From: a virus
Length of the DNA: 64,000 nt
Strand: one strand, 5' to 3'
IMG/VR virus record: IMGVR_UViG_3300044908_000045
Span: 58,239 to 122,238 of that record
Of the stretch, positions 41,925 through 58,061 are shown one piece after another. The translations under genes and the position numbers were made by a program. Numbering within the stretch: the first letter of the stretch is position 1; each line of letters starts with the position of its first letter. A model generated the notes under the pieces. The model saw nothing but the letters and a program-made list of their open reading frames with translations, was not told the DNA's origin and ran no database searches.

Positions 41925-42557
41925 ATGCCGAAGAAGGGCGTTTCTCTCACCCCTGAGCATCTGGCAGCGATGGCTGAGGGACGCCGCCGTGCCGCTGCGG
42001 AGCGAGATGCGGTCGTGTCCCCGATCCGCCCGACGACCCGACCAGTTCCAGAAGAATCGGGGAACGCCGCGATGCTCACTGAACTCCGCGCGAGCCGCAC
42101 GCTCCTCGAAGCAATTCGCGCGCTCCTAGAAACGAGGTTGCCTAGTTGGGCGGCTACTGCGCCAAGTACAGTCGCACGCGACATGAACCGCGAGACCAGC
42201 AGACAGTTCGTTGCGGCAAAGCTCGACCGCGCCAAAGAGGCCGTTCGCCAATTCACCAACACCAAGGTCAGCGACGGCAATCAGTGGAACGACACAGGAT
42301 CACCCAGTGCGGTCCCAGCTGTCGAGCCCGATGGCGCAGAGGACGTATTCGATCTCGGCGATGAATTGACTGAACTCAATCGCGAGATCGCCGACGAATT
42401 GCCCCCACCGCCATCACTCGATGAGCAGTGGGTCAGCCGATTGGATAAGTTCAAGCGATTTGGGATGTGGCTGCCAGAGTGGTCGGGTCGCCCCGGTCAA
42501 GCAGATTGCGATGCGCCAGTCGAACTCCTGGAGGAATACGGCTTTGTCAAGCGATAG
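41925..42557 (+). CDS. Phage hypothetical protein
   Basis: Long ORF; C-terminal W...W.GRPGQ.DC.AP..LL motif. Confidence 0.55.
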   Translation: MPKKGVSLTPEHLAAMAEGRRRAAAERDAVVSPIRPTTRPVPEESGNAAMLTELRASRTLLEAIRALLETRLPSWAATAPSTVARDMNRETSRQFVAAKLDRAKEAVRQFTNTKVSDGNQWNDTGSPSAVPAVEPDGAEDVFDLGDELTELNREIADELPPPPSLDEQWVSRLDKFKRFGMWLPEWSGRPGQADCDAPVELLEEYGFVKR

Positions 42558-42763
42558 GTTTGTCGTGGCTTGGCGATTCCCATGTGATGCCCGGCATCGG
42601 ACACTAGACCAAGCACTCGCCGCCGGTGCAATCGAACGCCAGCGCTGGCACGATCAGAACCCAGACCACAAACTCGGCGCATTGTGTGTTCAGCGCATCG
42701 GTGCCAATGATGAGTGGATCGTGTCGGCTTCCGTTCTTGGTACATCCGCACTAAATCTGGTGC

Positions 42764-45061
42764 GTGAAGAGCAAGGAACGACCTCTAGCGGGGAAGGGCA
42801 CTAGACGCCAATCCCCCGTCCTGCGGCTAGGCGACGAGGCAATACCGCCCGAGTTACGCCATCTCCGCAATCACCCCGCCTTCGAACTCGCATACCGCTT
42901 CCCAAAGGAAGGACTAAAGCACTTCGAGCGACTGCGGTGTGAGCAGTCGCTATTGGCGTTTTTTGAGCGGGCGTGGCGAGAGATCGACCCGGCACCACTT
43001 AAGGTTAACTGGCACCATCAGTGCGTGTGTGCACACCTGGAGGCCGTAACTCGTGGCGAAATCCGCCGTCTCGTGGTGAACGTCCCGCCGCGCGCAACCA
43101 AAACGATCATAGTAAACGTATGCTGGCCAGCGTGGTGCTGGACACAACCAAAAATAGGTCCATTGTCGGGGCCGCAGACCAAGTTTATGTGTATTTCCTA
43201 TGGGCAAAGGCTCTCGACTGAAATTGCAACTCTTGCGCGGCGGCTGATCCTGTCCGATTGGTACCAAGGTCATTGGGGCGAGCGGGTTAAAATTCTCGAT
43301 GACCAAGGACGCATCGACAATTTCGGCACGACAGCGGGAGGGTTCCGTATCGCCACCTCGATGACCGGATCGACTCTTGGCCGAGGCGGCGATTGCGTTG
43401 TTGGCGATACTACAGTAATAGGCTATGCTGGACCGCAGCGCATAGATGAAACAAAGCTAGGCGATTATGTATTATCCTGCACGAAAGAAGGAATACCAGT
43501 CTACCGTCGAGTTATTGCTGTCGCTAGGCGCCCGCCGAGGGCCATCTGGCGGGTATGTACTCGATCTGGAAACGTGGTTGAGGCGACGGGAGAGCATATA
43601 TTCTACACTAGACGGGGTTCAGTCAGCGCAATGGCCCTTCGTCCTGGTGATGTTCTCTTGCGCGCACTGCGGCAAAATTTGCTGTATCCCGCACGCGGAG
43701 GAGCGTTCCAAGTCGAAGACGATATCGTTTCCGTGGTTGAGAAAACGGACAGAGAGGAACTCGTCTATGATATCCAAGTCGAAGAAACGGGCTGCTTTTT
43801 TGCAAATGGAATAAAAATCTCCAATTGTCGAATAATTGATGATCCCCAAAGCGTAGAAGATGCCAATAGTCAGGTAGAAACCGAAAATGTTACGCGGACC
43901 TATCGGGAATCGCTGCAAACCCGCGAGACCGACCCCTCGACCTCGGCTGAGGTGCTGATTATGCAGCGCCTCGGTCAGGATGACCTTTCAGGATACATCC
44001 TGCAAAAGGCTCGCGACGATGTTATTCACGTTTGCTTGCCAATGCGCCACATCCCCGAGGCGCACTGCACGACACCGTGGTACGACGATCCACGCACCGA
44101 ACGCGATGAATTGCTCTGGCCTGAGCAATTCCCCAAGGAAGTTGTTGACAACTATGAGTTTGAATTAGGGCCGTTTTCGTTCGCCGGTCAGTTTATGCAG
44201 CAGCCTGTCCCACGCGGGGGCGGGATTTTCAAAAACGAGTGGTTCGAAGCGTGGCCACCGCTTGACGAGATGGGCGAACCGCCGATCGGGGCGATCGTCA
44301 ATGGTCGGATCATCTACCCAGCGCTTGAGTATGTCGTAGCATGGCTCGACACCGCGCACACGATCAAAGAGGAGAACGACTTTTGCGCGATGCTGACTTT
44401 TGGCGTCTTCCGCGCCGAAGGGAAGGGGCGGATCGAACGCCAAACCGACGGTCAATATATCCGAGTGGCAGACGATCAGGGATATCCGAAGGTTCTGCTG
44501 CTGAATGCGTGGCTGAAACGGCTGACAATCCACGGACCCCCGGAAGAACTGCCGCCTGGGGTCGATCTTAAAACCTGGAATAGCCCTCAGTATCTGCTGG
44601 AGCGGCAGAAGAACTGGGGGCTCGTCGAGTGGGTCCATCACACTGCGAAAAGATACAAAGTTGACCATCTCGGCATCGAAACCCAGGCCGTAGGCCATCA
44701 GCTTGAGCAAGAACTGCACCGCCTGCACTCTGACGCAACGTGGAGCGTCGAACTCGTCCCGGCTCGGGGTGATAAGGTGGCGCGCGCCTACGCAGTGCAA
44801 GGGATTGTATCGTCAAGACAAGTATATCTCCCCACTTTTCCTGATGGAACCTACCCAAGCTGGGTAGATCCTTGCCTAGATCAGATTCTTATGTTCCCCA
44901 AGGGAAGATACGACGACGCAACTGACGCTTTTTGTGCTGCTCTAAAGCATCTCCGCGACATCGGCATCTTTGAACGGCGTGGCGAATACGAGATTGCCGA
45001 AGAGCAATCCAAGATTTGGATACCTGGACAGCAGCGACTCGAATTGCCCTACGATCTCTGA
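42764..45061 (+). CDS. terL: Terminase large subunit with mini-intein
   Basis: NWHH, RLVVNVPPRATKT (Walker A region), GRGGD/IIDDP (Walker B), DTA...ND, GIE, FPKGRYDDATD nuclease motifs. Confidence 0.95.
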   Translation: MKSKERPLAGKGTRRQSPVLRLGDEAIPPELRHLRNHPAFELAYRFPKEGLKHFERLRCEQSLLAFFERAWREIDPAPLKVNWHHQCVCAHLEAVTRGEIRRLVVNVPPRATKTIIVNVCWPAWCWTQPKIGPLSGPQTKFMCISYGQRLSTEIATLARRLILSDWYQGHWGERVKILDDQGRIDNFGTTAGGFRIATSMTGSTLGRGGDCVVGDTTVIGYAGPQRIDETKLGDYVLSCTKEGIPVYRRVIAVARRPPRAIWRVCTRSGNVVEATGEHIFYTRRGSVSAMALRPGDVLLRALRQNLLYPARGGAFQVEDDIVSVVEKTDREELVYDIQVEETGCFFANGIKISNCRIIDDPQSVEDANSQVETENVTRTYRESLQTRETDPSTSAEVLIMQRLGQDDLSGYILQKARDDVIHVCLPMRHIPEAHCTTPWYDDPRTERDELLWPEQFPKEVVDNYEFELGPFSFAGQFMQQPVPRGGGIFKNEWFEAWPPLDEMGEPPIGAIVNGRIIYPALEYVVAWLDTAHTIKEENDFCAMLTFGVFRAEGKGRIERQTDGQYIRVADDQGYPKVLLLNAWLKRLTIHGPPEELPPGVDLKTWNSPQYLLERQKNWGLVEWVHHTAKRYKVDHLGIETQAVGHQLEQELHRLHSDATWSVELVPARGDKVARAYAVQGIVSSRQVYLPTFPDGTYPSWVDPCLDQILMFPKGRYDDATDAFCAALKHLRDIGIFERRGEYEIAEEQSKIWIPGQQRLELPYDL
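43394..43825 (+). mobile_element. Mini-intein (144 aa, no endonuclease) in TerL
   Basis: Starts CVVGDT; block B EATGEH; block F VYDIQVE; ends FFANGIKISN followed by +1 Cys. Confidence 0.92.
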
Positions 45062-45103
45062 TAAAGGGCTTGACGCCCCGCGATTTGTGGGCTTCAATTG
45101 CGC

Positions 45104-45325
45104 ATGAAGCGCACCCCCAACCCTCGCCTGCACTTCGAAGTCTCGGAGACATTGGATGCTGAACTTCGGGCCATCGCCGAGGATCAGGGGGTTACCCTAG
45201 CTACCGTGCTGCGCGCCGGGATCGCGCTGGTCAAGATTTACCACCGCACGAAGCAGACCAAACGCCATCTCGGGATTGTTTCCGACCCGGCGGTTCTCGA
45301 CACCGAGATCATCGGGCTTTTTTAA
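45104..45325 (+). CDS. Ribbon-helix-helix (CopG/Arc-like) regulator
   Basis: RLHFEVSETLDAELRAIAEDQGVTLATVLRAGI. Confidence 0.7.
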   Translation: MKRTPNPRLHFEVSETLDAELRAIAEDQGVTLATVLRAGIALVKIYHRTKQTKRHLGIVSDPAVLDTEIIGLF

Positions 45326-45340
45326 CCCTCGGAGGACGAC

Positions 45341-45787
45341 ATGCAAGTGCCCGAAATCATCACCAAGCGGCTAGCCGAATTGAACCGCTACATCGACGAG
45401 CTGGAACAGCTTTGGCCGCTTCTCGAAGAGCGCGAAGCGCTACAGATCGCGATCGATGCGATCCGCAGCAAGGGTGCCCCAGCAGGCACACAAGAAGACT
45501 TCGAGCGAGTCGCCGCTACACACCAGGATATGCTTGCGGCAAAGGCTTGGGCGTCTGCTGAGCCGATCCCGCATCTGCGAAATACAGACAAGGGCGAACC
45601 TCCAGAGGGGTTGCTGCCAACGATTTCTGAGAGGATTCTGGGGGCGCTCACCGAGCCGATGACCGCGCTGCAAATCGCGCACGCGCTTGGTGTTCCGGTC
45701 GCGAATGTTTCGCCGCGACTGACAACATTGTATCAGCGCGGCAAACTGACCCATGAAGGGAATTTGTGGGGTCCGACTGCTGGCTGA
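45341..45787 (+). CDS. Coiled-coil plus winged-HTH protein
   Basis: GGAGG RBS; ILGALTEPMTALQIAHALGVPVANVSPRLTTL. Confidence 0.6.
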   Translation: MQVPEIITKRLAELNRYIDELEQLWPLLEEREALQIAIDAIRSKGAPAGTQEDFERVAATHQDMLAAKAWASAEPIPHLRNTDKGEPPEGLLPTISERILGALTEPMTALQIAHALGVPVANVSPRLTTLYQRGKLTHEGNLWGPTAG

Positions 45788-45921
45788 ATTAGAGCCGCGA
45801 GTGATCGCTCGGAAGACAAGAACGACCGCCGAGTAAATCGTGATATAAACTAGGGGCCAGCCGAGATCGCTGGCCTGATCCGCATCCAGCCTCGGGGTCG
45901 TGGCGTGCGTAAAGGCACGTC

Positions 45922-48276
45922 ATGCCCGACGATCTGGCGCACGGGTTCTCCCGTATCCCGCCTCCCGATGAGCCCGAGGGTCTCCCCGAGGACGAGGGCG
46001 GCGAGGTCTCGGTTCTCACCGACGACCCCTCAGTCAAGCCCAGGCTTGACCCCAAGACTGGGGCCTTGTCAATTGACACCGAGGATGGCGGCGTTGTTGT
46101 CCAATTCAACCCGCCGAAGCCGCAAGCCGACACCGGCGACGACAAGTTTTTCGCCAATCTCGCCGACAAGATCAGTGCCGAGGCCCGCAACGAGATCGTC
46201 AGCGAACTCCTAGAGGGGATCGCGGCCGATGACCAGTCGCGCACGCAATGGCTCGACATGCGTGCCGAAGGGATCAAGATGCTCGGCATCGCGCTGGAAA
46301 AGCCGCGCGCCGATGCTGGCAATACGACCGAGCCGTTCGAGGGGATGTCGACAATCCGGCATCCGCTGCTCTCCGAAGCCATCGCCCGGTTCCAAGCCAA
46401 TGCCGCTGCCGAACTCTACCCGCCGAGCGGCCCCGTCAAGGTTCGCGACGATCGGCCTTCGAAGCCGAGTGGCGCTAATGACATCCCCGGTATCGGCGAC
46501 AATGGCGGTCCGCCTCTCGATGACGGTAGCCCGCCCGTTCAGGCGACCCGTGAGGAACTCGCCGAGGCACTGGAAAAGGGCTTCAACCACAATCTGACGG
46601 TGGTTGACCGCGGCTATCGTCCTGACAGCGTGCGGATGCTGTTCGAGATCGGGTTCTCCGGCTGTGCCTTTAAAAAGGTCTACGACTGCCCAATCCGCGA
46701 ACGCCCGATCAGCCGCTTTGTCAAGGCGACCGACATCATCGTCGCCGACGCCACTTCGGACGCGCGCGATGCCGGCCGGCTGACGCACCGCATTGTGATG
46801 CGGCAGAGCGTGGTCAGGCGGATGCAGATCCTCGGCGTCTACCGCGATATCGAACTGCATGAGCCATTCTTCGAGCCCAATGCTGCGGAACAAGCGACCG
46901 CCCGCGCTCAGGGGCTCGAAGACAAGCCGCAGCGCCAAGAGGACCAACCGCGCACGATCTACGAATCCTATGTCGAACTCGACATTGAGGGGTTTGAGCA
47001 CAAACGGCACGGGAAGCCGACTGGGCTGCCGTTACCCTACAAGGTCACGATCGACAAAGACAGCCGCGAGATGCTCGAACTGCGGCGCAATTGGGAGGAA
47101 GACGACGACACCTTTCAGCCGCGCACCGTGTTCGTCAAATTCGGGTTTATCCCAGCGCTCGGGTTTTACGACATTGGTCTGTTGCACCTGTTGGGTAACG
47201 GCGACAAAGCCCTGACCGCTGCGTGGCGCGAGGCGCTCGACACCGGGATGTTCAATAACTTTCCGGGGTTCATGTATAATGAAGGCGTCATCCGCAACTG
47301 GACGAATCAGAACCGCATCCCGCCTGGCGGGGGGCTTGGGATCAAGGGAGTACCCCCCAATGTTCCGCTGCGCAATGTCCTGGAACCGCTGCCGTACAAG
47401 GATGTCAGTGCCGGGCTCGTCGGCATCACGACACACATCGAGCAGCGCATGGACCGGGTCGCCAGCATGGGCGAATTGCCGGTTGGCGAGGGCGTGCAAA
47501 ACGCGCCGGTGGGAACCACTTTGGCTTTGCTCGACCAAGCCCAGAAGTTATTGGCTGCGGTGCATATCGGGCTGCACGCCAGCCAAGCCGAGGAATTTGC
47601 CCTATTAAAGGAGCGCTACAAGCAGAACCCAGAATCGTTCTGGCGGTGGAACAAGAAGGGCTATGCGTGGGAGGAGAGCCTGTTCCTCCAGGCCCTCGAC
47701 GATTGCGAGATCGTCCCGGCGGCCGATCCGAATACCGCATCGCACACCCTGCGGCTGATCAAGTGCCAAGCGGTCAAGCTGGTGGCGCAGATGAACCCGC
47801 AGATGTACGACATGAAAAAGGTTGATGAGTGGGTCTTCAAGATGATCGGGGTCGCCGATTCCGACTCGTTCTTTGCGCCGCCGCCCGATCCTAACGCGCC
47901 ACCACCAGCGGTCCCGATTGACCCCAACAAGCAGGCGCAGGTCCAGCAAAAGCAGGATCAGGTCCAGACCGAGAACCAAGCCAAGATCGCCGCGCTGCAA
48001 CTCAAGGGACAGCAGCAGGAGCAGGACAACGCTGCCAAGATGGCCGAGATGCAGACGGGGCAAGCGGCAGAAGCGCGCGACGCCCAACTTCAAGCACAGC
48101 AAAGCGTTGTGGAAAGCGCCGACCGCGAGGCCGACCGCGCATCGCGCGAGCGGGTCGCGGCGATGCGCGAGCAGACCGAGCAGGCCAAATTGCAACACGA
48201 GGCAACGCAAAACACCATGGACCGCGCCCACGAAGCGCTAACCGCACCTCCGCCAGCCGCCCCTGAATCGCCATAA
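45922..48276 (+). CDS. Portal protein (P22-like podovirus type)
   Basis: 784 aa after terL; SRTQW, HPLLSEAIARFQA, GCAFKKVY, APVGTTLAL, long C-terminal Gln-rich helical barrel. Confidence 0.88.
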   Translation: MPDDLAHGFSRIPPPDEPEGLPEDEGGEVSVLTDDPSVKPRLDPKTGALSIDTEDGGVVVQFNPPKPQADTGDDKFFANLADKISAEARNEIVSELLEGIAADDQSRTQWLDMRAEGIKMLGIALEKPRADAGNTTEPFEGMSTIRHPLLSEAIARFQANAAAELYPPSGPVKVRDDRPSKPSGANDIPGIGDNGGPPLDDGSPPVQATREELAEALEKGFNHNLTVVDRGYRPDSVRMLFEIGFSGCAFKKVYDCPIRERPISRFVKATDIIVADATSDARDAGRLTHRIVMRQSVVRRMQILGVYRDIELHEPFFEPNAAEQATARAQGLEDKPQRQEDQPRTIYESYVELDIEGFEHKRHGKPTGLPLPYKVTIDKDSREMLELRRNWEEDDDTFQPRTVFVKFGFIPALGFYDIGLLHLLGNGDKALTAAWREALDTGMFNNFPGFMYNEGVIRNWTNQNRIPPGGGLGIKGVPPNVPLRNVLEPLPYKDVSAGLVGITTHIEQRMDRVASMGELPVGEGVQNAPVGTTLALLDQAQKLLAAVHIGLHASQAEEFALLKERYKQNPESFWRWNKKGYAWEESLFLQALDDCEIVPAADPNTASHTLRLIKCQAVKLVAQMNPQMYDMKKVDEWVFKMIGVADSDSFFAPPPDPNAPPPAVPIDPNKQAQVQQKQDQVQTENQAKIAALQLKGQQQEQDNAAKMAEMQTGQAAEARDAQLQAQQSVVESADREADRASRERVAAMREQTEQAKLQHEATQNTMDRAHEALTAPPPAAPESP

Positions 48277-48319
48277 AGGGGCTTGCGCGCCGATACGTGG
48301 CGTATTATCTCTGCTGCGG

Positions 48320-48514
48320 ATGACTGCAGAAGAGTTCAGTGACATCGGCAAAAAACTGGTCGGCGCGCGTCCAGGATGGCAGCGCCGATTGGGGCTTAAG
48401 CTCGGCAAGGAACAGGCGACTATCAGCCGCTATGCGGCGGGAAGCTTGTCTATTCCTCATACTGTAGCGGTGGCGTTGGAAGCTCTGCTTGGTCGTATCC
48501 ATCATCCCAAATGA
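48320..48514 (+). CDS. Small HTH protein heading the inserted operon
   Basis: GWQRRLGLKLGKEQATISRYAAG...IP..VAVAL; TTGCGC...TATTAT promoter-like sequence just upstream. Confidence 0.65.
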   Translation: MTAEEFSDIGKKLVGARPGWQRRLGLKLGKEQATISRYAAGSLSIPHTVAVALEALLGRIHHPK

Positions 48515-48527
48515 GGGGTACCACGCA

Positions 48528-49286
48528 ATGTCTCTCTTGCCGTTTGCCCGAAACTTTTTCACCGTTCAGGGCAACAATGCTGCGGCGGCGGTCACGAAGG
48601 CGCTCGTCAATCTGGACCCGGAAGGCGCTTCCGCTGCCGATCTCATGTCAATGGAGCAGGATCTCGACCGAGCGGGCGGCGTCATTGCTAAGCTCCGAAA
48701 GGATCTGGTCACCGAACAGCGCGAATTCGACGCGTTAAACAGACAGTACACCGAACTGATGGGAGCCGCTGAAATCCTTCAAAAAAAGCTGGAGGGCGGC
48801 GACGCCTCGGTCGAGGCATCCCTTGCATCGCTTGTCGGTAAAATTGAGAACATCGCGCCTGAGTTGGAGCGCGACCGCAAGGATGTTGACGCGACCCAAA
48901 AGCTGATCACAGAGGCTGAGAATGCCTATCAGCAAAAAGCGGCGGCGCTGACCGGAGCCAAGCGCAACCTCGATGCGGCCCGTCACGATCTGGCGCACGC
49001 CAATATCCAAGAGGAGCGCGCACGCGAACGCGCACAGCAAGCTGCTGTTGTGGCGGGTCTCACAAAATCTCCGACGAGTGGTCTGACGGTGGCGCTTAAC
49101 GTGATGCAACAGAGCGCAGATGACGCGCGGCAACGCGCCGAATCGGCGGACATGAAGGCCGCAGCCCTGCACCACGCGGGCAACGACGCCGCCGACGATC
49201 CGAACATCGCGGAGGCACTCGCCGAAGTGCACGGTGCGGCGTCGACCAAATCACTGAGTGAGCGGCTCGCAGCCCTAAAAAAATAG
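48528..49286 (+). CDS. PspA/IM30-like (YjfJ-like) coiled-coil protein
   Basis: DPE near the N-terminus, long heptad helices, C-terminal LSERLAALKK; context matches yjfJ...yjfM-yjfC. Confidence 0.6.
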   Translation: MSLLPFARNFFTVQGNNAAAAVTKALVNLDPEGASAADLMSMEQDLDRAGGVIAKLRKDLVTEQREFDALNRQYTELMGAAEILQKKLEGGDASVEASLASLVGKIENIAPELERDRKDVDATQKLITEAENAYQQKAAALTGAKRNLDAARHDLAHANIQEERARERAQQAAVVAGLTKSPTSGLTVALNVMQQSADDARQRAESADMKAAALHHAGNDAADDPNIAEALAEVHGAASTKSLSERLAALKK

Positions 49287-49296
49287 GAGCAGGCAC

Positions 49297-49863
49297 ATGC
49301 GCGTTCGTAACGCCGCGTGCCTTGGCTCACTATTGTTGCTCGCCGCCTGCGGCCCTAACGGTTGCAGCGGCGATAACAGCCAAGAGCGCGTCTTCAACTC
49401 TCTCGCCGAGTGCCAAAAGGACCCAACTTACACTGCTCAACAATGCCTAGATGCCTTTGCTAGGGCATCTCAGGAACAAGCGGCGAGCGCCCCGCGCTAC
49501 TCTAATAGAGATAGCTGTGAGGAACTCTACGGACCAGGGAACTGTGTGCCGAGAGGTAGTGGAGATAGTTCATTCATACCGATGATGACTGGCTTCATGC
49601 TTGGCAACATGATGTCTGGTGGCGGTGGAACGACCTATATTTCGCGTCCTGTCTACATTGATCGCGGGGGCACTGCGTACACCACGGGTGGGCGTTCCAT
49701 CGGCACGGTGACGCCGGGTCGAGGCGGGTTTGGCGGCTCAGCCAGTTCGTGGAGCGGGTTCCATTCCTCATCCTCGTCGCCGGGCATCACATCGGGTGGC
49801 TCGGTCTCTCGCGGAGGTTTCGGAGGTTCGGCGTTCTCCGCCTCCTCGTCTGGAGGCGAATGA
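49297..49863 (+). CDS. DUF1190 (YgiB/YjfM-like) lipoprotein
   Basis: Lipobox LLAAC; FNSLAEC...C...APRY....CEELYGPGNC, FIPMMTGFMLG, Ser/Gly tail with VSRGGFG. Confidence 0.88.
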   Translation: MRVRNAACLGSLLLLAACGPNGCSGDNSQERVFNSLAECQKDPTYTAQQCLDAFARASQEQAASAPRYSNRDSCEELYGPGNCVPRGSGDSSFIPMMTGFMLGNMMSGGGGTTYISRPVYIDRGGTAYTTGGRSIGTVTPGRGGFGGSASSWSGFHSSSSSPGITSGGSVSRGGFGGSAFSASSSGGE

Positions 49864-50042
49864 TGATCCGCATCTGTGTCGAGATCATCATTGCGATCAT
49901 CATCGCGTGGTTTGTGGCCCACTTCCTCTTCTGGGTTCTGTGGAAAGCCGCCACTCTCGCTGCCTTCATCGGCGTGTTATACGGCACGATTCGTGTATTT
50001 TCGCACTTCAGGGGATTACCAAAATGGAACGGATCACCATAG
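49860..50042 (+). CDS. Small two-TM membrane protein
   Basis: GGAGG RBS, ATGA overlap, two hydrophobic helices. Confidence 0.6.
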   Translation: MMIRICVEIIIAIIIAWFVAHFLFWVLWKAATLAAFIGVLYGTIRVFSHFRGLPKWNGSP

Positions 50043-51166
50043 ACCCGCGACCCAACTGGTCGAGCGAAATCGAGAAACTGGGGTTCGACTTCTACCTAAT
50101 GGACGGGATACCGTACTGGACCGAGAACGCCTATTACCATTTCACCGCAGCGGAAATTGACGAGATCGAAGCGGCGGCGAATAAGGTACATCGGCTCTGC
50201 ATCTACGCCGTCCAGCGCATCATTGACGAACGGCTGTTTCCGCTTCTCGGTATCGAGCCTGAGTTGGTGCCGTTGATCGCCGAGAGCTGGGACCGCAAAG
50301 ACCCAGCGATCTACGGCCGCTTTGACATGATGTACGACGGCAAGTCGCCACCAAAGCTCCTCGAATACAACGCCGACACACCCACCAGCCTATTTGAGGC
50401 ATCCATCGTGCAGTGGAACTGGCGCGAGCAACGCTTTCCCAAATCAGACCAGTTCAACTCAATCCATGAGCACATCGTCGCTCGGTGGCAGAATCTGCTG
50501 GTCGGTCGTCGAAATGCTGATCGGCTCTACGTCACTACCGCAACACCCATGCCCGAGGACGAGGCTACTGTTCAGTACATTGGTCGCACGGCTGAGGACG
50601 CCGGCTACAAGGTCAAATTCCTGCCCATCAAGGAGATCGGCTGGCACGATGGCCTAAACGCCTTCGTTGATCTCGACGGCACCGCCATGCGACAGATCTT
50701 CAAGCTATACCCGTGGGAGTGGCTGATGCGTGACGACTTCGGCGCTCACATTCGCGGGTCAGGCTCAGTCTGGCTAGAGCCGGCATGGAAGATGCTGCTC
50801 TCGAACAAAGGTCTGCTCCCGATCCTCTGGGACATGTTCCCTGAGCACGAGAACCTATTGCCTGCGTTCCGCGAACCCAGTCCCCTGCAAGGGAAGCCCA
50901 TGGTGCGTAAGCCGCTACTTGGGCGCGAAGGCAACAACATCGGCATCTACGACCCAGCGGGCCATGTGCTCGCCGAGACTGATGGTCGCTACGCCGAAGG
51001 CAACTTCGTCTATCAAGCCTATGCCGAGCCGCCAGAGTTCTCAGGATGTCGCGCTAATCTTGGTGTCTGGATGGTGCACGACGAGGCATGCGGCATGGGC
51101 GTCCGTGAGGACAATGGGTTGATCATCTCGAATAGTTCGAGGTTCGTCCCGCACACATTTGATTGA
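50024..51166 (+). CDS. Glutathionylspermidine synthase-like ATP-grasp ligase (YgiC/YjfC family)
   Basis: YWTE, YGRFD, KLLEYNADTPTSLFEAS, QFNSIHE, FKLYPWEW, EPAWKMLLSNK, KPLLGREGNNI, SRFVPH. Confidence 0.93.
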   Translation: MERITIDPRPNWSSEIEKLGFDFYLMDGIPYWTENAYYHFTAAEIDEIEAAANKVHRLCIYAVQRIIDERLFPLLGIEPELVPLIAESWDRKDPAIYGRFDMMYDGKSPPKLLEYNADTPTSLFEASIVQWNWREQRFPKSDQFNSIHEHIVARWQNLLVGRRNADRLYVTTATPMPEDEATVQYIGRTAEDAGYKVKFLPIKEIGWHDGLNAFVDLDGTAMRQIFKLYPWEWLMRDDFGAHIRGSGSVWLEPAWKMLLSNKGLLPILWDMFPEHENLLPAFREPSPLQGKPMVRKPLLGREGNNIGIYDPAGHVLAETDGRYAEGNFVYQAYAEPPEFSGCRANLGVWMVHDEACGMGVREDNGLIISNSSRFVPHTFD

Positions 51167-51248
51167 TGCCCACCCCAGCGCGTCGGGATTTGGTATTGAG
51201 CTAATCGGTGTGCTAGACTGCGGCTCTCTGTCTATGGGAGCCGCCAGT

Positions 51249-52109
51249 ATGGCCAACTCGCACGACCACTCTCATCTGCGCCACATGGCGGTGCAGCAGC
51301 ACGCCGAGCGGATTCATGAAATCCAGCGCGATCACCGCGCACATGGGGGTCGCGGCGACGAAGCCGCTGACAAAATTCTTGTGACGAAGGGCGTGCATGA
51401 CCACGAGCGCGCAATGCACAAGGGATCGCCGCTCACTCACTTAAATCTCCGCGATGGCGGTCACGCCGAGGGTCACTCAGGCAGGCATCGGCTTGATCGG
51501 GCAAGACGCGCGGACGGCGGCAAGGTTGACTCGATCTACCGCGACCGCAATGGTGGTGAGGGGGCGTCGAACAGCGGCAAGGGACGTGACGCGTCGGGCG
51601 AGAAAGACGCCGCCCGCATGCATGCCGAACAGAAGCGCGATGTTGACCATTACGCTCGTGATCGGTTTGCCGATGGTGGCCACACAAAGCGTGGCGGCAA
51701 GGCCAGCCACGTCAATGTCATCGTCGCACCTGGGCAAGGTCCGGCGCGCCCGGTGCCGATCCCGGTTCCTGCGGCTGGGATTGGCGGCGCGCCACCGCCT
51801 CGACCACCGATGCCCCCAATGGGCGCGGGCGGACCACCAATGGGCGGTCCTCCTCCGGGAGGTATGCCGGGAGCGGGAATGCCACCGCGCCCAGGCATGC
51901 CCATGCCGATGGCACCTGGCGGGATTCGCCGCAATGGGGGGCGTGCTGGGCGAGCCGATGGCGGTAGTATCGAGGAAGAGGCTGGCGAGCCGCATCCGCC
52001 GTTTAGCGCTGACCCAGAGATGCGTGGCGGCGCGCAGGGTGCGCTCGGCCGTCTCGAAAAGACCAAAAGCGCCCGCAAGATCGGCTCTGCCGCTGTGGCG
52101 GGAGACTAA
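51249..52109 (+). CDS. His/Arg/Gly-rich disordered protein with repeated xxGG motifs, putative head/core protein
   Basis: RAHGG, LRDGG, RADGG, FADGG, KRGG, RRNGG; Pro/Met-rich tract; GRLEK near the end. Confidence 0.6.
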   Translation: MANSHDHSHLRHMAVQQHAERIHEIQRDHRAHGGRGDEAADKILVTKGVHDHERAMHKGSPLTHLNLRDGGHAEGHSGRHRLDRARRADGGKVDSIYRDRNGGEGASNSGKGRDASGEKDAARMHAEQKRDVDHYARDRFADGGHTKRGGKASHVNVIVAPGQGPARPVPIPVPAAGIGGAPPPRPPMPPMGAGGPPMGGPPPGGMPGAGMPPRPGMPMPMAPGGIRRNGGRAGRADGGSIEEEAGEPHPPFSADPEMRGGAQGALGRLEKTKSARKIGSAAVAGD

Positions 52110-52364
52110 AAGGAGAGCCCGTCATGCGGGCGTTGGTGCTGACGCATGCGGGCGAATTGTCGGCGATGGAAAAACGTCGAGACCGCCGCGGTGCCGCTCC
52201 TGGTCATCAGCAGTGCGATGGTCTGATCGAGCCGCATATCGAATATGACCGTGAGCAGGGCTGGCGCATTACCCATCGGTGCAAATGTGGCAATGTCACC
52301 CGTAGCGATGGGTGGCACAGCGAACTGACCATGATCGAGCATGGTTTTTGGCGGAGGTTACGGG

Positions 52365-52646
52365 ATGACGGAGCAAAGTAGACCGCGTCAATTCAATGGA
52401 TTTGTCATTGACATTCACGCGCTGGAGAAAGCTCTTGGAATTCCGCGCGATCACCGCATCGTTCGAGTGTCCACGACGACTGACGACTACGTTCCTGGCA
52501 TTAAAATCATCATCGAAGGTCCAGCGTGTTATCTTCTTGCTGGCTCGCGAGCCCCAGTCGCATATGACGATTTTGAGCGATGGTTGCAAAATGTTGATGA
52601 AATCAGAGAGGCGGGGATTGATCGCTATGGACCTTACGAGTGGTAG
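52365..52646 (+). CDS. Phage hypothetical protein
   Basis: GGAGG RBS before MTEQSR. Confidence 0.5.
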   Translation: MTEQSRPRQFNGFVIDIHALEKALGIPRDHRIVRVSTTTDDYVPGIKIIIEGPACYLLAGSRAPVAYDDFERWLQNVDEIREAGIDRYGPYEW

Positions 52647-52649
52647 GGG

Positions 52650-52665
52650 TGTTTCACGTGAAACA
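52650..52665. promoter_or_regulatory. parS: Canonical chromosomal-type parS site TGTTTCACGTGAAACA
   Basis: Exact match to the bacterial parS consensus, inside a 20-bp palindrome (52648-52667), intergenic. Confidence 0.85.
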
Positions 52666-52677
52666 CCGAGCCGCCGC

Positions 52678-52706
52678 TTGACAATGGCGCAATTGATTCG
52701 TAACTA
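52678..52706 (+). promoter_or_regulatory. Sigma70-like promoter
   Basis: TTGACA-N17-TAACTA. Confidence 0.6.
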
Positions 52707-52713
52707 GCATCGG

Positions 52714-52850
52714 TACTGGCGAACCTCAGCCACGAATGCTGGGAAAGCCGCGCTCTGGTAGCGCATAGCGGTTCGACGGACTGATCCCAGAACCGCACGG
52801 CGGCATCGCCATCAGAACGAGGCGCGCGATGGGATTCTCCGCGACCAGTA
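52714..52850 (+). ncRNA. Candidate structured leader/ncRNA
   Basis: Closing stem TACTGG/CCAGTA; internal stems CTGGGA/TCCCAG, GCGCT/AGCGC, CATCGC/GCGATG; lies between a promoter and a GTG start. Confidence 0.4.
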
Positions 52851-52851
52851 A

Positions 52852-53370
52852 GTGACGGTAGTGTGCTTCAGGGATGGGATTCTCTGCGCCGACAGACTTG
52901 TCACAGCCAGCTATGGCGGTCGCGTCGGTCACCGCAGTAAAATCTTCCGCACTTCGGCCGAAGGCAATCACTACGGCTTTTCTGGCCCTATCGGTGCCGC
53001 CGCGATATTTACGCGTTGGCTTGCCGAAGGGGGTGCCCTGAAAGACGCCCCCGATCTTGATGAGCACCAAGCAATCGAAATTCGATCGGGCAATCGGGTT
53101 GCGCTGTCCTCCGGCAAGAAGCCCGTCTTTATTGAGGTTGAAGCACCGTTTTACGCCATTGGCTCAGGCTGGCAATTGGCGCTGGGGGCCATGGAAATGG
53201 GGGCGACCGCCGAGCAGGCGGTCGAGGTGGCGATACGCCATGACGAGGGCTGCGGGGGTCAGATTGATGTGATCCGGTGCTACGAGCAGGCGATGCAGTT
53301 TGCCCCGCAGGCGGCAGCGGTGACCTTCCCAAATCGCATTGACCCGATCCACCTTGGGGGGCCGCGATGA
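52852..53370 (+). CDS. Ntn-hydrolase, proteasome-beta/HslV-like peptidase
   Basis: N-terminal (M)TVV...CADRLVT, SKI, FYAIGSG...ALGAM..GA.AEQAV..AI..D..CGG. Confidence 0.8.
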   Translation: MTVVCFRDGILCADRLVTASYGGRVGHRSKIFRTSAEGNHYGFSGPIGAAAIFTRWLAEGGALKDAPDLDEHQAIEIRSGNRVALSSGKKPVFIEVEAPFYAIGSGWQLALGAMEMGATAEQAVEVAIRHDEGCGGQIDVIRCYEQAMQFAPQAAAVTFPNRIDPIHLGGPR

Positions 53371-53464
53371 CTGCGTATCCCGCCGTCAATTCGTTCGACG
53401 ATAGCCAATATCATCTAGTGGGTCATCTGGTTTTCCGCATCTACAGCCGTCAGGATTTCGACTG

Positions 53465-53668
53465 ATGATCGGTGGTGGCTATAATCCCTGGTTTGTGGAC
53501 GAGTTGATTCGGCGAATTGATACCGATCGCCGCGACAAAGCTTCCGATCTCGGGAATGGGATTGCCCCTGATTTCGGTGCCTACCAGTATGCTTGTGGGG
53601 TGATCGAGGGATTGCGGCTCGGTGCCGAGCACGCCGAAGATATTAAAAGAGAGCAGGACCGGCAATGA
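53465..53668 (+). CDS. Conserved small head-module protein
   Basis: LGNG...DFGAYQYACGVIEGL, typical upstream of phage GroES-like genes. Confidence 0.6.
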   Translation: MIGGGYNPWFVDELIRRIDTDRRDKASDLGNGIAPDFGAYQYACGVIEGLRLGAEHAEDIKREQDRQ

Positions 53669-54150
53669 ATACCAGTTTTTTAATGCCTGAACGGGCGTTG
53701 GTGACGCCGAGCGGCGTGCGTCCCGCAGAGCATCGGGTGACGTTCTCTGAGGAAAACGAAGCCAAGGAGCAAGCCTATCGGCTATTGGGCGATCTCGATG
53801 ACATTGAGTTGTTCTTCAACGACGTTCTGATCCTGAAATACATTCGCACCCAATTGAGCGAGAATCTGACGGCCTCAGCCGAGACGCAGAAAGAAGACAA
53901 GTGGCAAAGCAGCATTGGTTTGGTGCTCAAGGTCGGCCCGACCGCTTTCGTTGATGACGAACACACCAAGTTCCACGGCGCCACTGTGGCGCGTGGTGAT
54001 TGGGTAATGTTCCGCGACAGCGACGGCTGGAACCGCGGCATTCAGGAACTCTACGGGTTTCATCGGTTTGCGCATTGCCGGGTACTGCAGGACGCGCACA
54101 TTCGGGCGCGGGTCAAATACCCCGGTCGATTTATGGCACTGGAATGGTGA
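53665..54150 (+). CDS. GroES-like co-chaperonin
   Basis: NDVLI...GLVLKVGPTAF...GDWVMF...RVLQD.HI. Confidence 0.8.
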   Translation: MNTSFLMPERALVTPSGVRPAEHRVTFSEENEAKEQAYRLLGDLDDIELFFNDVLILKYIRTQLSENLTASAETQKEDKWQSSIGLVLKVGPTAFVDDEHTKFHGATVARGDWVMFRDSDGWNRGIQELYGFHRFAHCRVLQDAHIRARVKYPGRFMALEW

Positions 54151-54158
54151 TCTAGCCC

Positions 54159-55178
54159 ATGTCTGAAACTCGGGTCACTGACCCCAATACCGATGTTGAT
54201 CAGAAAAATCGCGAGATCGAGATCGTCGATGAGCCGATTGACGATCAGAGCGGCATCGTCGAGGAGATGAAGCGGCAACTGGCTGAGCTTGAGGAGCGGG
54301 ATCGGAAGCGCGAAGATGAGATCAAGGCTGAGCGCCAGCGCGCTAGTGATGCCCAGCGCGCCCGCGAGGCGGCCGAGGCTCGGGCGCGTGATGCCGATGC
54401 CCGCGCTCGGGATGGCGCCGACACCGCTGCCCGCTCGGTCGATGACGCTCAGTTCGAGGCGATCTCAACGTCGCTGACGGCGGCAACCGATCAGATGAAC
54501 GGTCTGAAAGGGCAGTACAAGACGGCGTTCACCGAGGGCGATGCCGACAAACTGGCCGAGATTCAGGCTAATATGGCGTTGCTTGGATCGAGGATTACAA
54601 CGCTCGAAGCGGGCAAGCGAGCATTGGAGGCACGCAAGGCAACCCCCGATGCGCAGCGGCGACAAGAGACGCAATCCGAGCCAAGTGAATCCGAACGCCA
54701 AGAAACCTTTATCCGCGGGCAACCTCCGCGCGTCCAAGACTGGCTGCGCGCCAATCGCGAGCGCTATTTCAATGACGCCGATTTCCAGCAGCAGGTCGCC
54801 GCTGCCGCCGGGTACGCACAGCGCATCAAGCGCCTAGACCCCGGCAGTCAGGAATATATTGACTATGTTGATTACGAACTTGGTTTGCGTCAGCGGCCAG
54901 ATCCGGTTGCGGCGCAAACCAATGAGCGGACCAATCAGCCAGCAGGACGCAATCCCGAGGATCGCGATAACCGCAATGACCGGCGCATGGTGACCGCTCC
55001 AGCAGGGGGGAGTGTGCCGAACACCGCGCAGGCGAGCGGCGGCACCGAGCAGGTCTATCTGACCCGCGAGGAAAAGGAGCAGGCCCGCCGCGACGGAATC
55101 ACCGAGGCGGAATGGGCCAAGGCCAAGCTCGAATTGATCCGCGAGGGTCAGTTGGGGCCAAACCGGAGGAATAGATGA
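54159..55178 (+). CDS. Capsid scaffolding protein
   Basis: Acidic coiled coil; C-terminal LTREEKEQARRDGITEAEWAK; upstream of the capsid genes. Confidence 0.7.
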   Translation: MSETRVTDPNTDVDQKNREIEIVDEPIDDQSGIVEEMKRQLAELEERDRKREDEIKAERQRASDAQRAREAAEARARDADARARDGADTAARSVDDAQFEAISTSLTAATDQMNGLKGQYKTAFTEGDADKLAEIQANMALLGSRITTLEAGKRALEARKATPDAQRRQETQSEPSESERQETFIRGQPPRVQDWLRANRERYFNDADFQQQVAAAAGYAQRIKRLDPGSQEYIDYVDYELGLRQRPDPVAAQTNERTNQPAGRNPEDRDNRNDRRMVTAPAGGSVPNTAQASGGTEQVYLTREEKEQARRDGITEAEWAKAKLELIREGQLGPNRRNR

Positions 55179-55433
55179 ACCCCCGGATCATTTGCGAAGC
55201 TGACAAGGCGGCGCGCACTATCACGTTTTACGTGCGTGAGGGATTTGGTGACGGCAGGGATTTCCGAGGATTGTGCCTTGCCGATCCTGAGCAAGAACGT
55301 GCCGTGGCAATGAGAACGTTTGGTGAGGCCATCGATGTCATCACGGGCAAGAAGCGGTCAGCGGTCGCTGTCGAAAAGTGGTGCACGATGACCTATCTCG
55401 ATGATGGATCTCCGACTGACGGGAGTTTGGCAC

Positions 55434-55976
55434 GTGAATGACGCAGGCTACCAATCTGAGGCGCGGGCTACCGATCGTGCTCCACGCCTCTCGCCGCGCG
55501 ACGGCAATCCGCGTCTTGCCAGCACCCCGACCGATGGTCCGCGCTTGCAGCGCCGCCGGCATCAGGTCAACATCATGGAGTCGCCCAAGCCTCCGCCCGG
55601 CTTCACCTATGAGTGGAAGGCCGAGAAAATTTACGGCGAGCCGCAGAACGAGCATATCATCGACATCCGCGAGAACCATTGGAAGCAGGTGCCGGCCTCG
55701 CGCCACCCGGAATACGCCATGGGCAGCGACACCGTAATTCGCCGCAAGGATACTGTACTTTATGAGCGCCCGACCTATCTGGTCGATGAGGCCCGCATGG
55801 AGCAGATCGAGGATGCGATGAAGCCGGTGCTGCACCAGGAGCAGATCATGTATGGGGGTGCCCCGGATCAATTGACCCGCGATCACCCTTCGGTGCGGCG
55901 CATCTCAAAAATCAATCAGCAATACGCGCCGGGAGCCCCCATATCAGATGACGGCCCCCTATCATCGGAGCCATAA
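55434..55976 (+). CDS. Conserved head-module protein
   Basis: PPGFTYEWK...W..VPASRHPE...LYERP motif seen before podoviral capsid genes. Confidence 0.6.
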   Translation: MNDAGYQSEARATDRAPRLSPRDGNPRLASTPTDGPRLQRRRHQVNIMESPKPPPGFTYEWKAEKIYGEPQNEHIIDIRENHWKQVPASRHPEYAMGSDTVIRRKDTVLYERPTYLVDEARMEQIEDAMKPVLHQEQIMYGGAPDQLTRDHPSVRRISKINQQYAPGAPISDDGPLSSEP

Positions 55977-56249
55977 AATGCGCGAATACAAGATGGTTGA
56001 GATGGGGACCTCCGAGTATCTGTCCCTGTTAGACACCAGACTGCTTCCCGATCCAGGCAATAATTGGTGGAAGGCCAACCCAGACGGTTGGCATCAGCGG
56101 GCAGTGGTAGACAATCAGGTGTTTTTCTGTCGCGAGAGAATGGAACACGGTCAAGACGGTTGAGTGACCTAGCCCAACAGGGCTGAAAAACCCCGTCCGG
56201 CGGCAGGAGAAAACGTTACGTCGTCCCCGTTCTCCGTGGCCGCCAATCC

Positions 56250-57996: not shown

Positions 57997-58061
57997 GTTG
58001 TATGCGCTGTTGCCGATCACCTGAGTTACAATCCGTCTGTAAAACGACGGAGGAATGTGCT

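Follow-up and report, generated by a model that had tools for sequence, protein, structure and literature searches.

The window, a 64,000-nucleotide stretch of a soil phage genome of about 122 kb whose host is probably an alphaproteobacterium, carries a 2,904-bp accessory cassette (48287–51190) between the portal and head genes. The portal gene (45922–48276, plus strand; phrog_1216, E = 2.4e-16), 99% identical in three sibling phages (L007, L008, and L009), forms the conserved left flank. Directly on the right lies a conserved head-region gene for a Pro/Gly-rich basic protein (51210–52109, plus strand), which matched no family in Pfam and PHROG searches and whose uncertain start is taken from the GTG start of the matching sibling gene. 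Farther downstream are the head genes for an HslV-like peptidase (52852–53370) and the major head protein (57082–57996; phrog_371).

The cassette comprises five plus-strand genes, encoding a 64-aa Xre/Cro-type HTH protein (48320–48514), a 252-aa coiled-coil protein, CC252 (48528–49286), a 188-aa DUF1190 lipoprotein (49297–49863), a putative 60-aa hydrophobic peptide with one or two membrane helices (49860–50042), and a 380-aa YjfC/YgiC-type ATP-grasp ligase (50024–51166). Gaps of 13 and 10 nt separate the HTH, CC252, and DUF1190 genes; the DUF1190 stop and the start of the 60-aa frame share a 4-nt ATGA overlap, and the 60-aa and ligase frames overlap by 19 nt. A Shine-Dalgarno-like purine run lies 5–12 nt upstream in each of the four coupled genes, with GGAGG 5 nt upstream of the 60-aa frame. 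An earlier note on this DNA had placed these genes at 48285–51166, between portal and head genes; all five are present, on one strand and tightly spaced, and its interval nearly coincides with the segment replaced in the siblings. The promoter-like element it had described was not recovered, as a sigma-70 scan of 47900–51500 gave 0 sites (shuffles, 1.0 ± 0.9); a weak hairpin (48287–48303) is present at the left cassette edge.

The cassette is genuine phage DNA and no assembly chimera, since contigs from four other soil runs span its junctions (left, X2, X3, and X4; right, X3 and X24). It is in place in 97–98% identical variants from other soil runs (X3 records 17 and 24; X24 record 16), and its G+C content is like that of the rest of the phage. 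None of the 24 sequencing runs listed is on record as RNA. Of two possibilities that the earlier note had raised against itself, a chimera and a one-off capture, the bridging contigs dispose of the first, and the cassette is more than a single sighting, though absent from all three near-identical siblings.

Proteins encoded by the cassette

The ligase matches PF03738 (GSP_synth) over model positions 1–370 of 371 (E = 4.4e-143, 477.4 bits, cut-off 29.3), and its closest PDB matches are YjfC (7uk6, E = 9.3e-94) and YgiC (7uk8, E = 4.2e-91), ahead of TryS (4.1e-35) and GspS (E = 3e-29). The GspS match begins at GspS residue 247, behind its N-terminal part, and the phage protein lacks the GspS amidase domain. 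An alignment of 18 ligases retains 57 invariant columns. By homology, the protein belongs to the YgiC/YjfC family, with predicted peptide-spermidine ligase activity. Peptide-spermidine ligase activity has been reported for YgiC and YjfC (Pederick 2023, cited in PMC12568646 and PMC11762307), which gives the substrate, unknown in the earlier note, a partly known class.

The DUF1190 protein matches PF06693 (E = 4.8e-31, 108.7 bits, cut-off 22) and phrog_3739 (E = 2e-27); both family assignments suggested for HMM checking, GSP_synth and DUF1190, are thus confirmed. It carries a signal peptide with an LLAAC lipobox, read from the sequence, and a Ser/Gly tail containing, as previously noticed, RGGFG twice and ending in GGE. 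The GGFG motif is invariant in all 19 aligned DUF1190 sequences; the tail ends in GG in 23 of 28 viral homologues, from which the GGE of this phage differs. Complex prediction of the tail with the ligase scored 0.55 (runs, 0.54–0.57; best of three controls, 0.01), to be read against a mark reached by 58/80 solved complexes and 2/110 mismatched pairs, where passes at 0.60 or under comprise only 7/80 solved complexes and both mismatches. Contact agreement between runs is 52% or higher, and the partner pLDDT is 56 or higher. The prediction, together with the invariant GGFG, weakly suggests the tail as a candidate ligase target, in line with the substrate proposed earlier. Because the lipoprotein is exported and the ligase cytoplasmic, such a modification would require a step before export.

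CC252 had been called PspA-like, a label that HMM search does not return: PF04012 gives no match to CC252 even at E ≤ 10, and none anywhere in the phage genome at E ≤ 1. The best PF04012 score in the CC252 family is that of P0119 (17.5 bits, E = 0.0033, almost full length), against a gathering score of 33.9 bits. In two alphaproteobacterial metagenome-assembled genomes (MAGs) that encode CC252 homologues, PF04012 finds other, canonical PspA genes and misses the homologues at E ≤ 1. Profile-profile comparison by hhalign of 147 family members with 12 PspA sequences gave a probability of 82% (E = 1.1e-6, 252 columns) in global mode and 48% (E = 1.9e-4, 231 columns) in local mode, with reversed-template controls at ≤1.3% (E = 0.016–0.12); A1 against E. 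coli YjfJ alone gave nothing (probability 1.4%). An N-terminal DP motif and a C-terminal LAALK-like motif line up between the two families.

A CC252 model built with an alignment comprises helices 4–29, 31–88, 93–175, 185–222, and 225–234, with hairpin pLDDT above 90; an ESCRT-III-like fold would have an N-terminal helix, a long alpha1/alpha2-3 hairpin, and after it alpha4 and alpha5. The top four Foldseek matches among 350,542 chains are Vipp1 chains, at E values of 0.015–0.031 and all above 0.001; the title of one matched entry, 6zvr, names PspA too. A first, single-sequence model listed no PspA among its Foldseek matches. VIA-align superposes CC252 on the PspA hairpin 4whe at Z = 11.5 (123 residues, rmsd 1.9), a score that many unrelated helical hairpins equal. 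The Foldseek ranking, at these weak E values, leans towards the PspA/ESCRT-III fold that had been expected, which superposition does not distinguish. The Atlas structure search lists first a cluster with 100% PF04012 membership (TM 0.54), and neighbours of CC252 carry the names PspA/IM30. Profile comparison, fold ranking, and operon context together point to CC252 as a divergent member of a PspA/IM30-like family, with 697 cluster representatives conserved at full length. In PADLOC searches, the sole matches of CC252 were to LmuB and JetC, in their coiled-coil arms (E = 7.8e-6 to 7e-4).

The HTH assignment draws on an HTH_3 match below threshold (14.5 bits, Pfam cut-off 23; E = 0.037) and on a 32% identical paralogue encoded at another site of the phage genome (E = 5.4e-5); the small gene named in the earlier note is real, its class less firmly established. 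It gives a weak PDC-M64C match in PADLOC-DB (E = 0.0071) and probably encodes the regulator of the cassette. The 60-aa peptide belongs to no Pfam, PHROG, or PADLOC family, shows no likeness to DUF350 on comparison, and has no known relatives in the Atlas (best score, 0.80). PADLOC-DB likewise holds no match for the DUF1190 protein, the ligase, or five proteins of the sibling cassettes.

An exchange slot behind the portal

DNA identity to the three siblings stops at 48286, 10 nt past the portal stop, and returns at 51191, about 20 nt ahead of the next gene. At these identical breakpoints the siblings, all without the cassette, carry an SPFH/Band-7 membrane cassette: L007 and L009 encode four small secreted or membrane proteins and a 460-aa SPFH protein (PF01145, E = 5.2e-14), and L008 a shortened form. 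One sibling genome, complete at 120,565 bp with terminal repeats, contains neither a ligase nor a CC252 relative, and the cassette-bearing phage itself contains no Band_7 gene. The region behind the portal is a recombination-prone slot, here holding a self-contained accessory cassette, and the exchange of a PspA-like for an SPFH cassette at one phage locus is new.

The nearest relatives of the cassette genes are bacterial. Two alphaproteobacterial MAG loci with ordinary chromosomal flanks (L033 and L034) encode DUF350, a CC252 homologue, DUF1190, and the ligase in the order seen in the phage, at identities to the cassette of 60–64% (CC252), 38–40% (DUF1190), and 66–72% (ligase); neither has a counterpart of the HTH or 60-aa gene. 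The best metagenome protein is 76% identical to the cassette ligase, and viral ligases reach at most 48%. In the ligase tree, proposed earlier as a check, the cassette ligase falls in a clade of 56 tips (support 0.98) that includes the two MAG ligases and is otherwise free of viral ligases. The cassette therefore combines a phage-type HTH gene, foreign to the bacterial operon, with three genes from a chromosomal alphaproteobacterial operon and an orphan 60-aa membrane peptide; the source lineage is likely the DUF350-CC252-DUF1190-ligase operon. The cassette is incomplete, as the DUF350 gene was not taken along: the phage has no DUF350. No cassette protein matches DUF2170 or DUF2491 in Pfam either, and the description of a complete system cannot be kept. 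Across 15 bacterial CC252 loci, DUF350 is the usual partner (10/15), and DUF1190 and ligase adjoin CC252 in only three; PspA-like protein and ligase are hence not obligate partners.

Parts of the cassette recur in phages. The ligase is present in 145 of 50,697 GenBank phage records and 111 IMG/VR contigs, PHROGs holds families for both the DUF1190 lipoprotein and the ligase, and DUF1190 and DUF350 occur in 28 and 22, respectively, of 80 IMG/VR ligase loci. Phage PspA has also been described, a 2026 preprint proposing membrane stabilisation and reporting SPFH neighbours (bioRxiv 10.64898/2026.10.24.761521). As phage cargo, then, the system is no novelty; the earlier note had known of no such case. 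The new part is the PspA-like partner alongside the ligase in a phage: the 80 other viral ligase loci contain no CC252-family gene and a single weak PspA match (L064, E = 2.5e-4).

Proposed role of the cassette

We consider it somewhat more probable than the opposite that the cassette is a swap-slot module, derived from a bacterial operon, that cares for the inner membrane of the infected cell. The PspA-like protein would coat and stabilise the inner membrane of the infected (or lysogenised) cell and help to keep the proton motive force. The ligase would amidate a peptide carboxylate with a polyamine, most plausibly acting before export on the conserved GGFG tail of the DUF1190 protein, whose gene lies just upstream. 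The SPFH cassettes of the siblings may organise the membrane to similar effect in a different way. A bolder form of this proposal, which we regard as rather unlikely, holds that near relatives exchange equivalent inner-membrane protection modules, either a PspA-like protein with a DUF1190-tagging polyamine ligase or SPFH with small membrane proteins, that decide the outcome against membrane-attacking defences or rival phages, and that the CC252 family is an unrecognised PspA/ESCRT-III branch.

Superinfection exclusion or receptor masking, in which an envelope DUF1190 lipoprotein, perhaps polyamine-tagged, blocks competitors and the PspA-like protein is accessory only, would account for the lipoprotein signal and for the DUF1190 genes that stand alone in 92 GenBank phage records, most of them with no ligase close by among the matches listed. 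E. coli ygiB-ygiC shares an operon with tolC, a phage and colicin receptor gene (PMC11762307), and receptor masking by phage envelope proteins is discussed in the preprint cited above. We nevertheless find this improbable: no known exclusion family was matched in PADLOC, the PHROGs annotation is of unknown function, and neither a cytoplasmic PspA-like protein nor an SPFH inner-membrane protein as the alternative allele is explained. Less probable again is a counter-defence role, guarding the inner membrane against depolarising or perforating abortive-infection effectors with SPFH as the alternative answer. Near-identical phages do carry one or the other of two membrane-scaffold systems at a single locus, in a manner that would resemble accessory islands under diversifying selection, and PspA limits proton leakage according to the same preprint, but no cassette protein matches a known defence or anti-defence family in PADLOC.

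That the cassette is passenger DNA, recently captured and of no use to the phage, with CC252 a generic coiled coil, appears very unlikely. Its absence from all three close siblings, the incomplete capture of the bacterial operon, and the failure of CC252 against PF04012, with helical hairpins matching many folds, are set against intact reading frames with ribosome-binding sites and stop/start overlaps, retention in the variants from other soil runs, a phage-like G+C content with a phage-type HTH gene added in front, and full-length conservation of the CC252 family over 697 clusters. Least probable of all is polyamine management for packaging: a ligase beside the portal would capture spermidine, or buffer it, so that the genome can be condensed, and the remaining genes would be passengers. 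The spermidine use cited for the ligase family (PMC12568646, PMC11762307), the position between portal and head genes, and the frequency of ligase genes in large phages speak for it; yet siblings with 99% identical portals package without the cassette, the ligase is not close to packaging genes in other phages, and the position is a swap slot that implies no functional link.

Care of the inner membrane, the reading we prefer, bears on the physiological role of the bacterial yjf/ygi-type PspA, DUF1190, and ligase genes and on the natural substrate of the ligase, narrowing the search for its target to the short conserved DUF1190 tail. Near-isogenic phages that differ at one locus by this cassette, an SPFH cassette, or a shortened SPFH cassette offer a natural comparison for a role in infection. 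The CC252 family is a sizeable PspA-like family that Pfam-based PspA surveys of phages and bacteria would miss.

Relation to known systems

PspA operons with an ATP-grasp ligase, DUF350, and DUF1190 have been described, as have variants with a band-7 protein in place of the PspA pair (Ravi et al. 2024, PMC11237479). The E. coli yjfI-yjfJ-yjfK-yjfL-yjfM-yjfC cluster, of the "third group" in that work, runs yjfJ (PspA)-yjfK-yjfL (DUF350)-yjfM (DUF1190)-yjfC and has the PspA-type, DUF1190, and ligase genes in the order of the cassette, on one strand; the phage ligase aligns with YjfC end to end. With the MAG loci, this bears out the earlier statement that the gene set is chromosomal in bacteria. 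Unlike the E. coli cluster, the cassette is without DUF2170/CesT-like, DUF2491, and DUF350 genes, its PspA-like protein belongs to a separate family that PF04012 misses, and an HTH gene and a 60-aa membrane peptide are added within a phage structural module. By HMM, only DUF1190 and the ligase are present, and on this gene content the cassette is a reduced version of a yjfIJKLMC-type operon rather than a full member.

The alphaproteobacterial operon (L033 and L034; also L137 and L145) shares CC252, DUF1190, and the ligase in identical order, whereas it opens with DUF350, lacks the HTH and 60-aa genes, and has DUF1190 tails ending in GS or GGS instead of GGE. In Ralstonia phage phiRSL1 (ORF051-ORF052), Aeromonas phage 31 (ORF096c...ORF093c), and many IMG/VR contigs, a GGFG-tail lipoprotein likewise adjoins a YjfC/YgiC-type ligase. 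Some of these phage modules include DUF350 and others do not; their ligases share no more than 48% identity with the cassette ligase and fall outside its clade, and in the three phages inspected none of them follows the portal gene. Closest in suggested role are the PspA and SPFH proteins that large phages encode (bioRxiv 10.64898/2026.10.24.761521), where PspA-type genes stand beside membrane-associated genes, with maintenance of membrane function during infection as the proposed role. The text of that preprint contains 0 occurrences of spermidine, and the screen it describes (PF04012, E ≤ 1e-5) would miss the phage described here, which gives no PF04012 match even at the far more permissive threshold applied above.

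Gene content and surroundings of the cassette

The cassette (48287-51190) is composed of five plus-strand genes, encoding a 64-aa HTH protein (48320-48514), the 252-aa coiled-coil protein CC252 (48528-49286), a 188-aa DUF1190 lipoprotein (49297-49863; PF06693, 108.7 bits), a 60-aa hydrophobic peptide (49860-50042) and a 380-aa ligase (50024-51166; GSP_synth PF03738, 477.4 bits), with the two Pfam scores far over the cut-offs. Spacing is tight throughout: gaps of 13 and 10 nt are followed by overlaps of 4 nt (ATGA) and 19 nt. A purine-rich ribosome-binding stretch lies ahead of each coupled gene. The earlier note's observation of a small HTH gene and four tightly coupled genes interrupting the head module stands, except for its promoter-like element: a scan of 47900-51500 revealed no sigma-70-type site.

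The window makes up the final 64 kb of an IMG/VR virus record of 122,238 bp, whose estimated completeness is 93%. Upstream of the cassette on the plus strand are the genes for the large terminase (terL, 42764-45061; phrog_38, E 3.6e-66) and the portal (45922-48276; phrog_1216, E 2.4e-16). TerL carries an insertion of ~144 aa (43393-43829) that is missing in the sibling phage loci L007 and L009; its sub-threshold Hint and Intein_splicing matches make it a likely mini-intein. The terminase gene of L009 has an insertion of ~1.3 kb in its 3' part (L009 6162-7493) relative to the window and L007.

Directly after the cassette, also on the plus strand, is the gene for a Pro/Gly-rich basic protein (51210-52109) that matches no Pfam or PHROGs family and whose length differs among siblings (about 300, 372 and 358 aa) via internal insertions. 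It is followed by genes for an HslV-family peptidase (52852-53370, +; phrog_1040, E 2.2e-30), which may be the prohead protease, a GroES-like protein (+), a scaffold-like coiled-coil protein (+) and the major head protein (57082-57996, +; phrog_371, E 7.7e-8). An HNH endonuclease/endonuclease VII gene (57993-59048; phrog_99, E 1.1e-45), possibly a homing element, overlaps the 3' end of the major head gene. Comparing 42000-56000 with GenBank phages by megablast gave no match.

The slot behind the portal

A portal-based IMG/VR scan yielded 26 related loci, in none of which any of the five cassette genes has a relative (E <= 1e-3). Three of them, the sibling loci L007, L008 and L009, have portals 99% identical to that of the window. 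DNA identity to all three breaks off at 48286, 10 nt past the portal stop, and identity to L007 and L009 is restored at 51191, about 20 nt ahead of the next gene; the L008 sequence stops short of this right breakpoint. Between the breakpoints, L007 (6608-9663) and L009 (12366-15422) hold about 3.06 kb of other DNA encoding four small secreted or membrane proteins (a Gly-zipper-like secreted, a Trp/His/Tyr-rich secreted and two multi-pass membrane proteins), then an SPFH/Band-7 protein of 460 aa (PF01145, E 5.2e-14). L008 (3990-4753) presents a shorter form, in which one small secreted protein, the first of the set, is followed by the SPFH gene, the last of the set. Because these gene sets differ at one locus, the slot has at least three allelic states in near-identical phages. 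Neither GSP_synth nor a CC252 relative occurs anywhere in the complete sibling genome of 120,565 bp, which has terminal repeats. A Band_7 gene is absent from the phage of the window.

An assembly chimera is ruled out, as both junctions are bridged in contigs outside the likely source run. Parts of the stretch are present in 24 public runs, none of them recorded as RNA, and four contain at least half of its sampled words; one of these four may be the source sample, and the junctions were checked in contigs of four other runs (X2, X3, X4 and X24). The left junction is spanned by X2 record 4 (48246-48582, 0 differences), X3 record 17 (47600-49145) and X4 record 26 (48251-48428), and the right by X24 record 16 (50707-51641) and X3 record 24 (50898-51800); X2 record 6, extending only 29 letters beyond the right junction, was left out of the count. 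The X3 and X24 contigs and the window differ at 2-3% of positions, so soil samples hold a small natural population of the cassette-bearing type.

Origin of the cassette and affinity of CC252

A scan of species-representative genomes with a CC252 alignment revealed two MAG loci, L033 from an uncultured alphaproteobacterium and L034 from a Stellaceae bacterium, carrying CC252, DUF1190 and ligase genes in the phage order within ordinary chromosomal surroundings (CoA-transferase, MFS transporter, amidohydrolase). Identities between the phage and MAG proteins are 60-64% for CC252, 38-40% for DUF1190 and 66-72% for the ligase. Both loci begin with a DUF350 gene (E 5e-32 and 9e-33), which was not found in the phage, and the earlier description of the system as complete was thus overstated. 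The 60-aa peptide has no relatives in the MAG loci or the Atlas and is not DUF350-like, which rules it out as half of a DUF350 protein. The HTH gene lacks a counterpart in the bacterial operon and has a 32%-identical paralogue elsewhere in the same phage. The cassette is therefore composite: its HTH gene is a phage gene, three of its genes were captured from bacteria, and its small peptide is an orphan.

In a FastTree phylogeny of 190 ligases, the window enzyme groups with both MAG enzymes in a 56-tip clade (support 0.98) without any other viral ligase, the next appearing only from a 123-tip node up; the rows marked 'meta' in this tree are of unknown origin. The best viral match of the window ligase is 48% identical and its best metagenome protein 76%. 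There are also CC252 homologues at 68% identity; these and the 76%-identical ligases (P0270-P0272, P0002) may be of phage or chromosomal origin. We consider it very probable that the cassette is host-derived and sits in a swap slot.

The earlier note had called CC252 PspA-like, and on homology its interpretation was partly right. Several comparisons miss PspA. PF04012 finds no match in CC252 at E <= 10 or across the whole phage at E <= 1, and in both MAGs it detects canonical PspA genes elsewhere while leaving the CC252 homologues undetected. An hhalign run of the CC252 alignment (A1) against E. coli YjfJ alone gave nothing, Foldseek with a single-sequence CC252 model showed no PspA among the matches listed, and VIA-align placed PspA 4whe (Z 11.5, rmsd 1.9 over 123 residues) level with many unrelated hairpins. 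A PDB sequence profile search with A1 gave only generic coiled-coil matches (best E 0.016, occludin), in NCBIfam CC252 matched nothing beyond SMC and Rad50 coiled coils, all below threshold, and PF04012 is not among the 25 commonest families in Pfam scans of 30 CC252-family members.

Other evidence points towards PspA. The helices of the alignment-based CC252 model follow the PspA order and include a confidently predicted hairpin (31-88 and 93-175), and the model's four best Foldseek PDB chains are Vipp1, with PspA entries lower (E 0.015-0.2). Aligned by hhalign, 147 family members and 12 PspA sequences are co-linear across 231 columns in local mode (E 1.9e-4) and 252 in global mode (E 1.1e-6), against E 0.016-0.12 for reversed controls. 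An N-terminal DP motif and a C-terminal LAALK-like motif line up. One family member, P0119, matches PF04012 over nearly its full length (E 0.0033), and two members bear the name PspA/IM30 in their sources. In the Atlas, CC252 adjoins clusters that were automatically named PspA/IM30 (0.96-0.97), and the cluster closest to it in structure is 100% PF04012. The CC252 gene occupies the position of yjfJ in E. coli. On balance, CC252 is read as a divergent PspA/IM30-like family, a putative rather than proven member of PspA/IM30.

This family is compact, with nearly all of its 697 representatives (E <= 0.001) measuring about 250 aa, and occurs in single copy in 15 of 401 sampled genomes of the class. 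DUF350 and CC252 look like its core pair, judging from gene order, because DUF350 lies directly upstream in 10 of these 15 loci, mostly without DUF1190 and ligase after it (e.g., L135-L142). DUF1190 and ligase genes follow in three of the 15; downstream of CC252 in the 12 loci without DUF1190, nothing conserved was seen among the raw reading frames. Among viruses, tblastn of CC252 against GenBank phages found no match, and two pattern-limited IMG/VR scans gave pattern hits but no relatives.

Ligase, lipoprotein tail and known counterparts

The ligase aligns end to end with E. coli YjfC (E 9.3e-94) and YgiC (E 4.2e-91) and far more weakly with GspS (E 3e-29); accordingly, the enzyme was assigned to the YjfC/YgiC type and a true glutathionylspermidine synthetase was rejected. 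YjfC carries the RefSeq name peptide-spermidine ligase, an activity for which PMC12568646 and PMC11762307 cite Pederick et al. 2023, stating that the physiological substrate is unknown. In DUF1190 homologues adjoining ligases, a GGFG motif 8-13 residues from the C-terminus is invariant (19/19). The C-termini of 28 viral homologues are GG (23), GA (3), GS (1) and GE (1), the window tail ends in GGE and the MAG homologues in GS or GGS; a Gly-Gly end is therefore common, not invariant.

Complex prediction for the ligase with mature DUF1190 scored 0.55 (runs 0.54-0.57; best of three controls 0.01), with at least 52% of contacts shared between runs and a partner pLDDT of at least 56. Of 80 solved complexes, 58 pass the mark, as do two of 110 mismatched pairs; passes at scores <= 0.60 come from just seven of those 80 and from both mismatches. 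The model thus lends weak support to a predicted ligase-DUF1190 complex. Action of the ligase on DUF1190 meets a topological difficulty, the lipoprotein being exported and the ligase cytoplasmic.

That the cassette as a whole cares for the inner membrane of the infected cell is a function we infer and only slightly favour; our confidence in a host-derived cassette in a swap slot is much higher. A role as a defence system is unsupported by PADLOC.

The earlier note did not know the system as phage cargo, which is wrong, as PHROGs, GenBank and IMG/VR already show phage ligase or DUF1190 genes. The ligase belongs to phrog_6215 (moron/auxiliary metabolic gene class) and the lipoprotein to phrog_3739. 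Ligase homologues, all below 60% identity, are present in 145 of 50,697 GenBank phage records; 57 of the 145 are 'Acinetobacter' records, and the one inspected resembles a bacterial contig, which puts the real number of phages below 145. An IMG/VR scan with the single ligase protein found nothing, whereas an alignment-based scan did find homologues. Among 80 IMG/VR ligase loci, DUF1190 is present at 28, DUF350 at 22, CC252 at none and a weak PspA match at one. In this last locus (L064, 4749-9131 of a 359,890-bp contig), the weak match to canonical PspA (E 2.5e-4) lies close to the ligase and to DUF1190, whose tail ends in GGE as in the window.

A GGFG-tailed lipoprotein and a ligase are already paired in Ralstonia phage phiRSL1 (ORF051-ORF052) and Aeromonas phage 31 (ORF096c...ORF093c). 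The bacterial operon class is described by Ravi et al. 2024 (PMC11237479), who include variants with a band-7 protein in place of the PspA pair. An October 2026 preprint (bioRxiv 10.64898/2026.10.24.761521), screening with PF04012, found pspA in 184 huge phages and in 667 genomes of IMG/VR, describes SPFH neighbours of phage pspA and proposes membrane stabilisation; its main text does not mention spermidine. Two features are new here: in a phage, the DUF1190-ligase pair is accompanied by a PspA-like partner, and this partner alternates cleanly, as an allele, with SPFH cassettes in the slot behind the portal.
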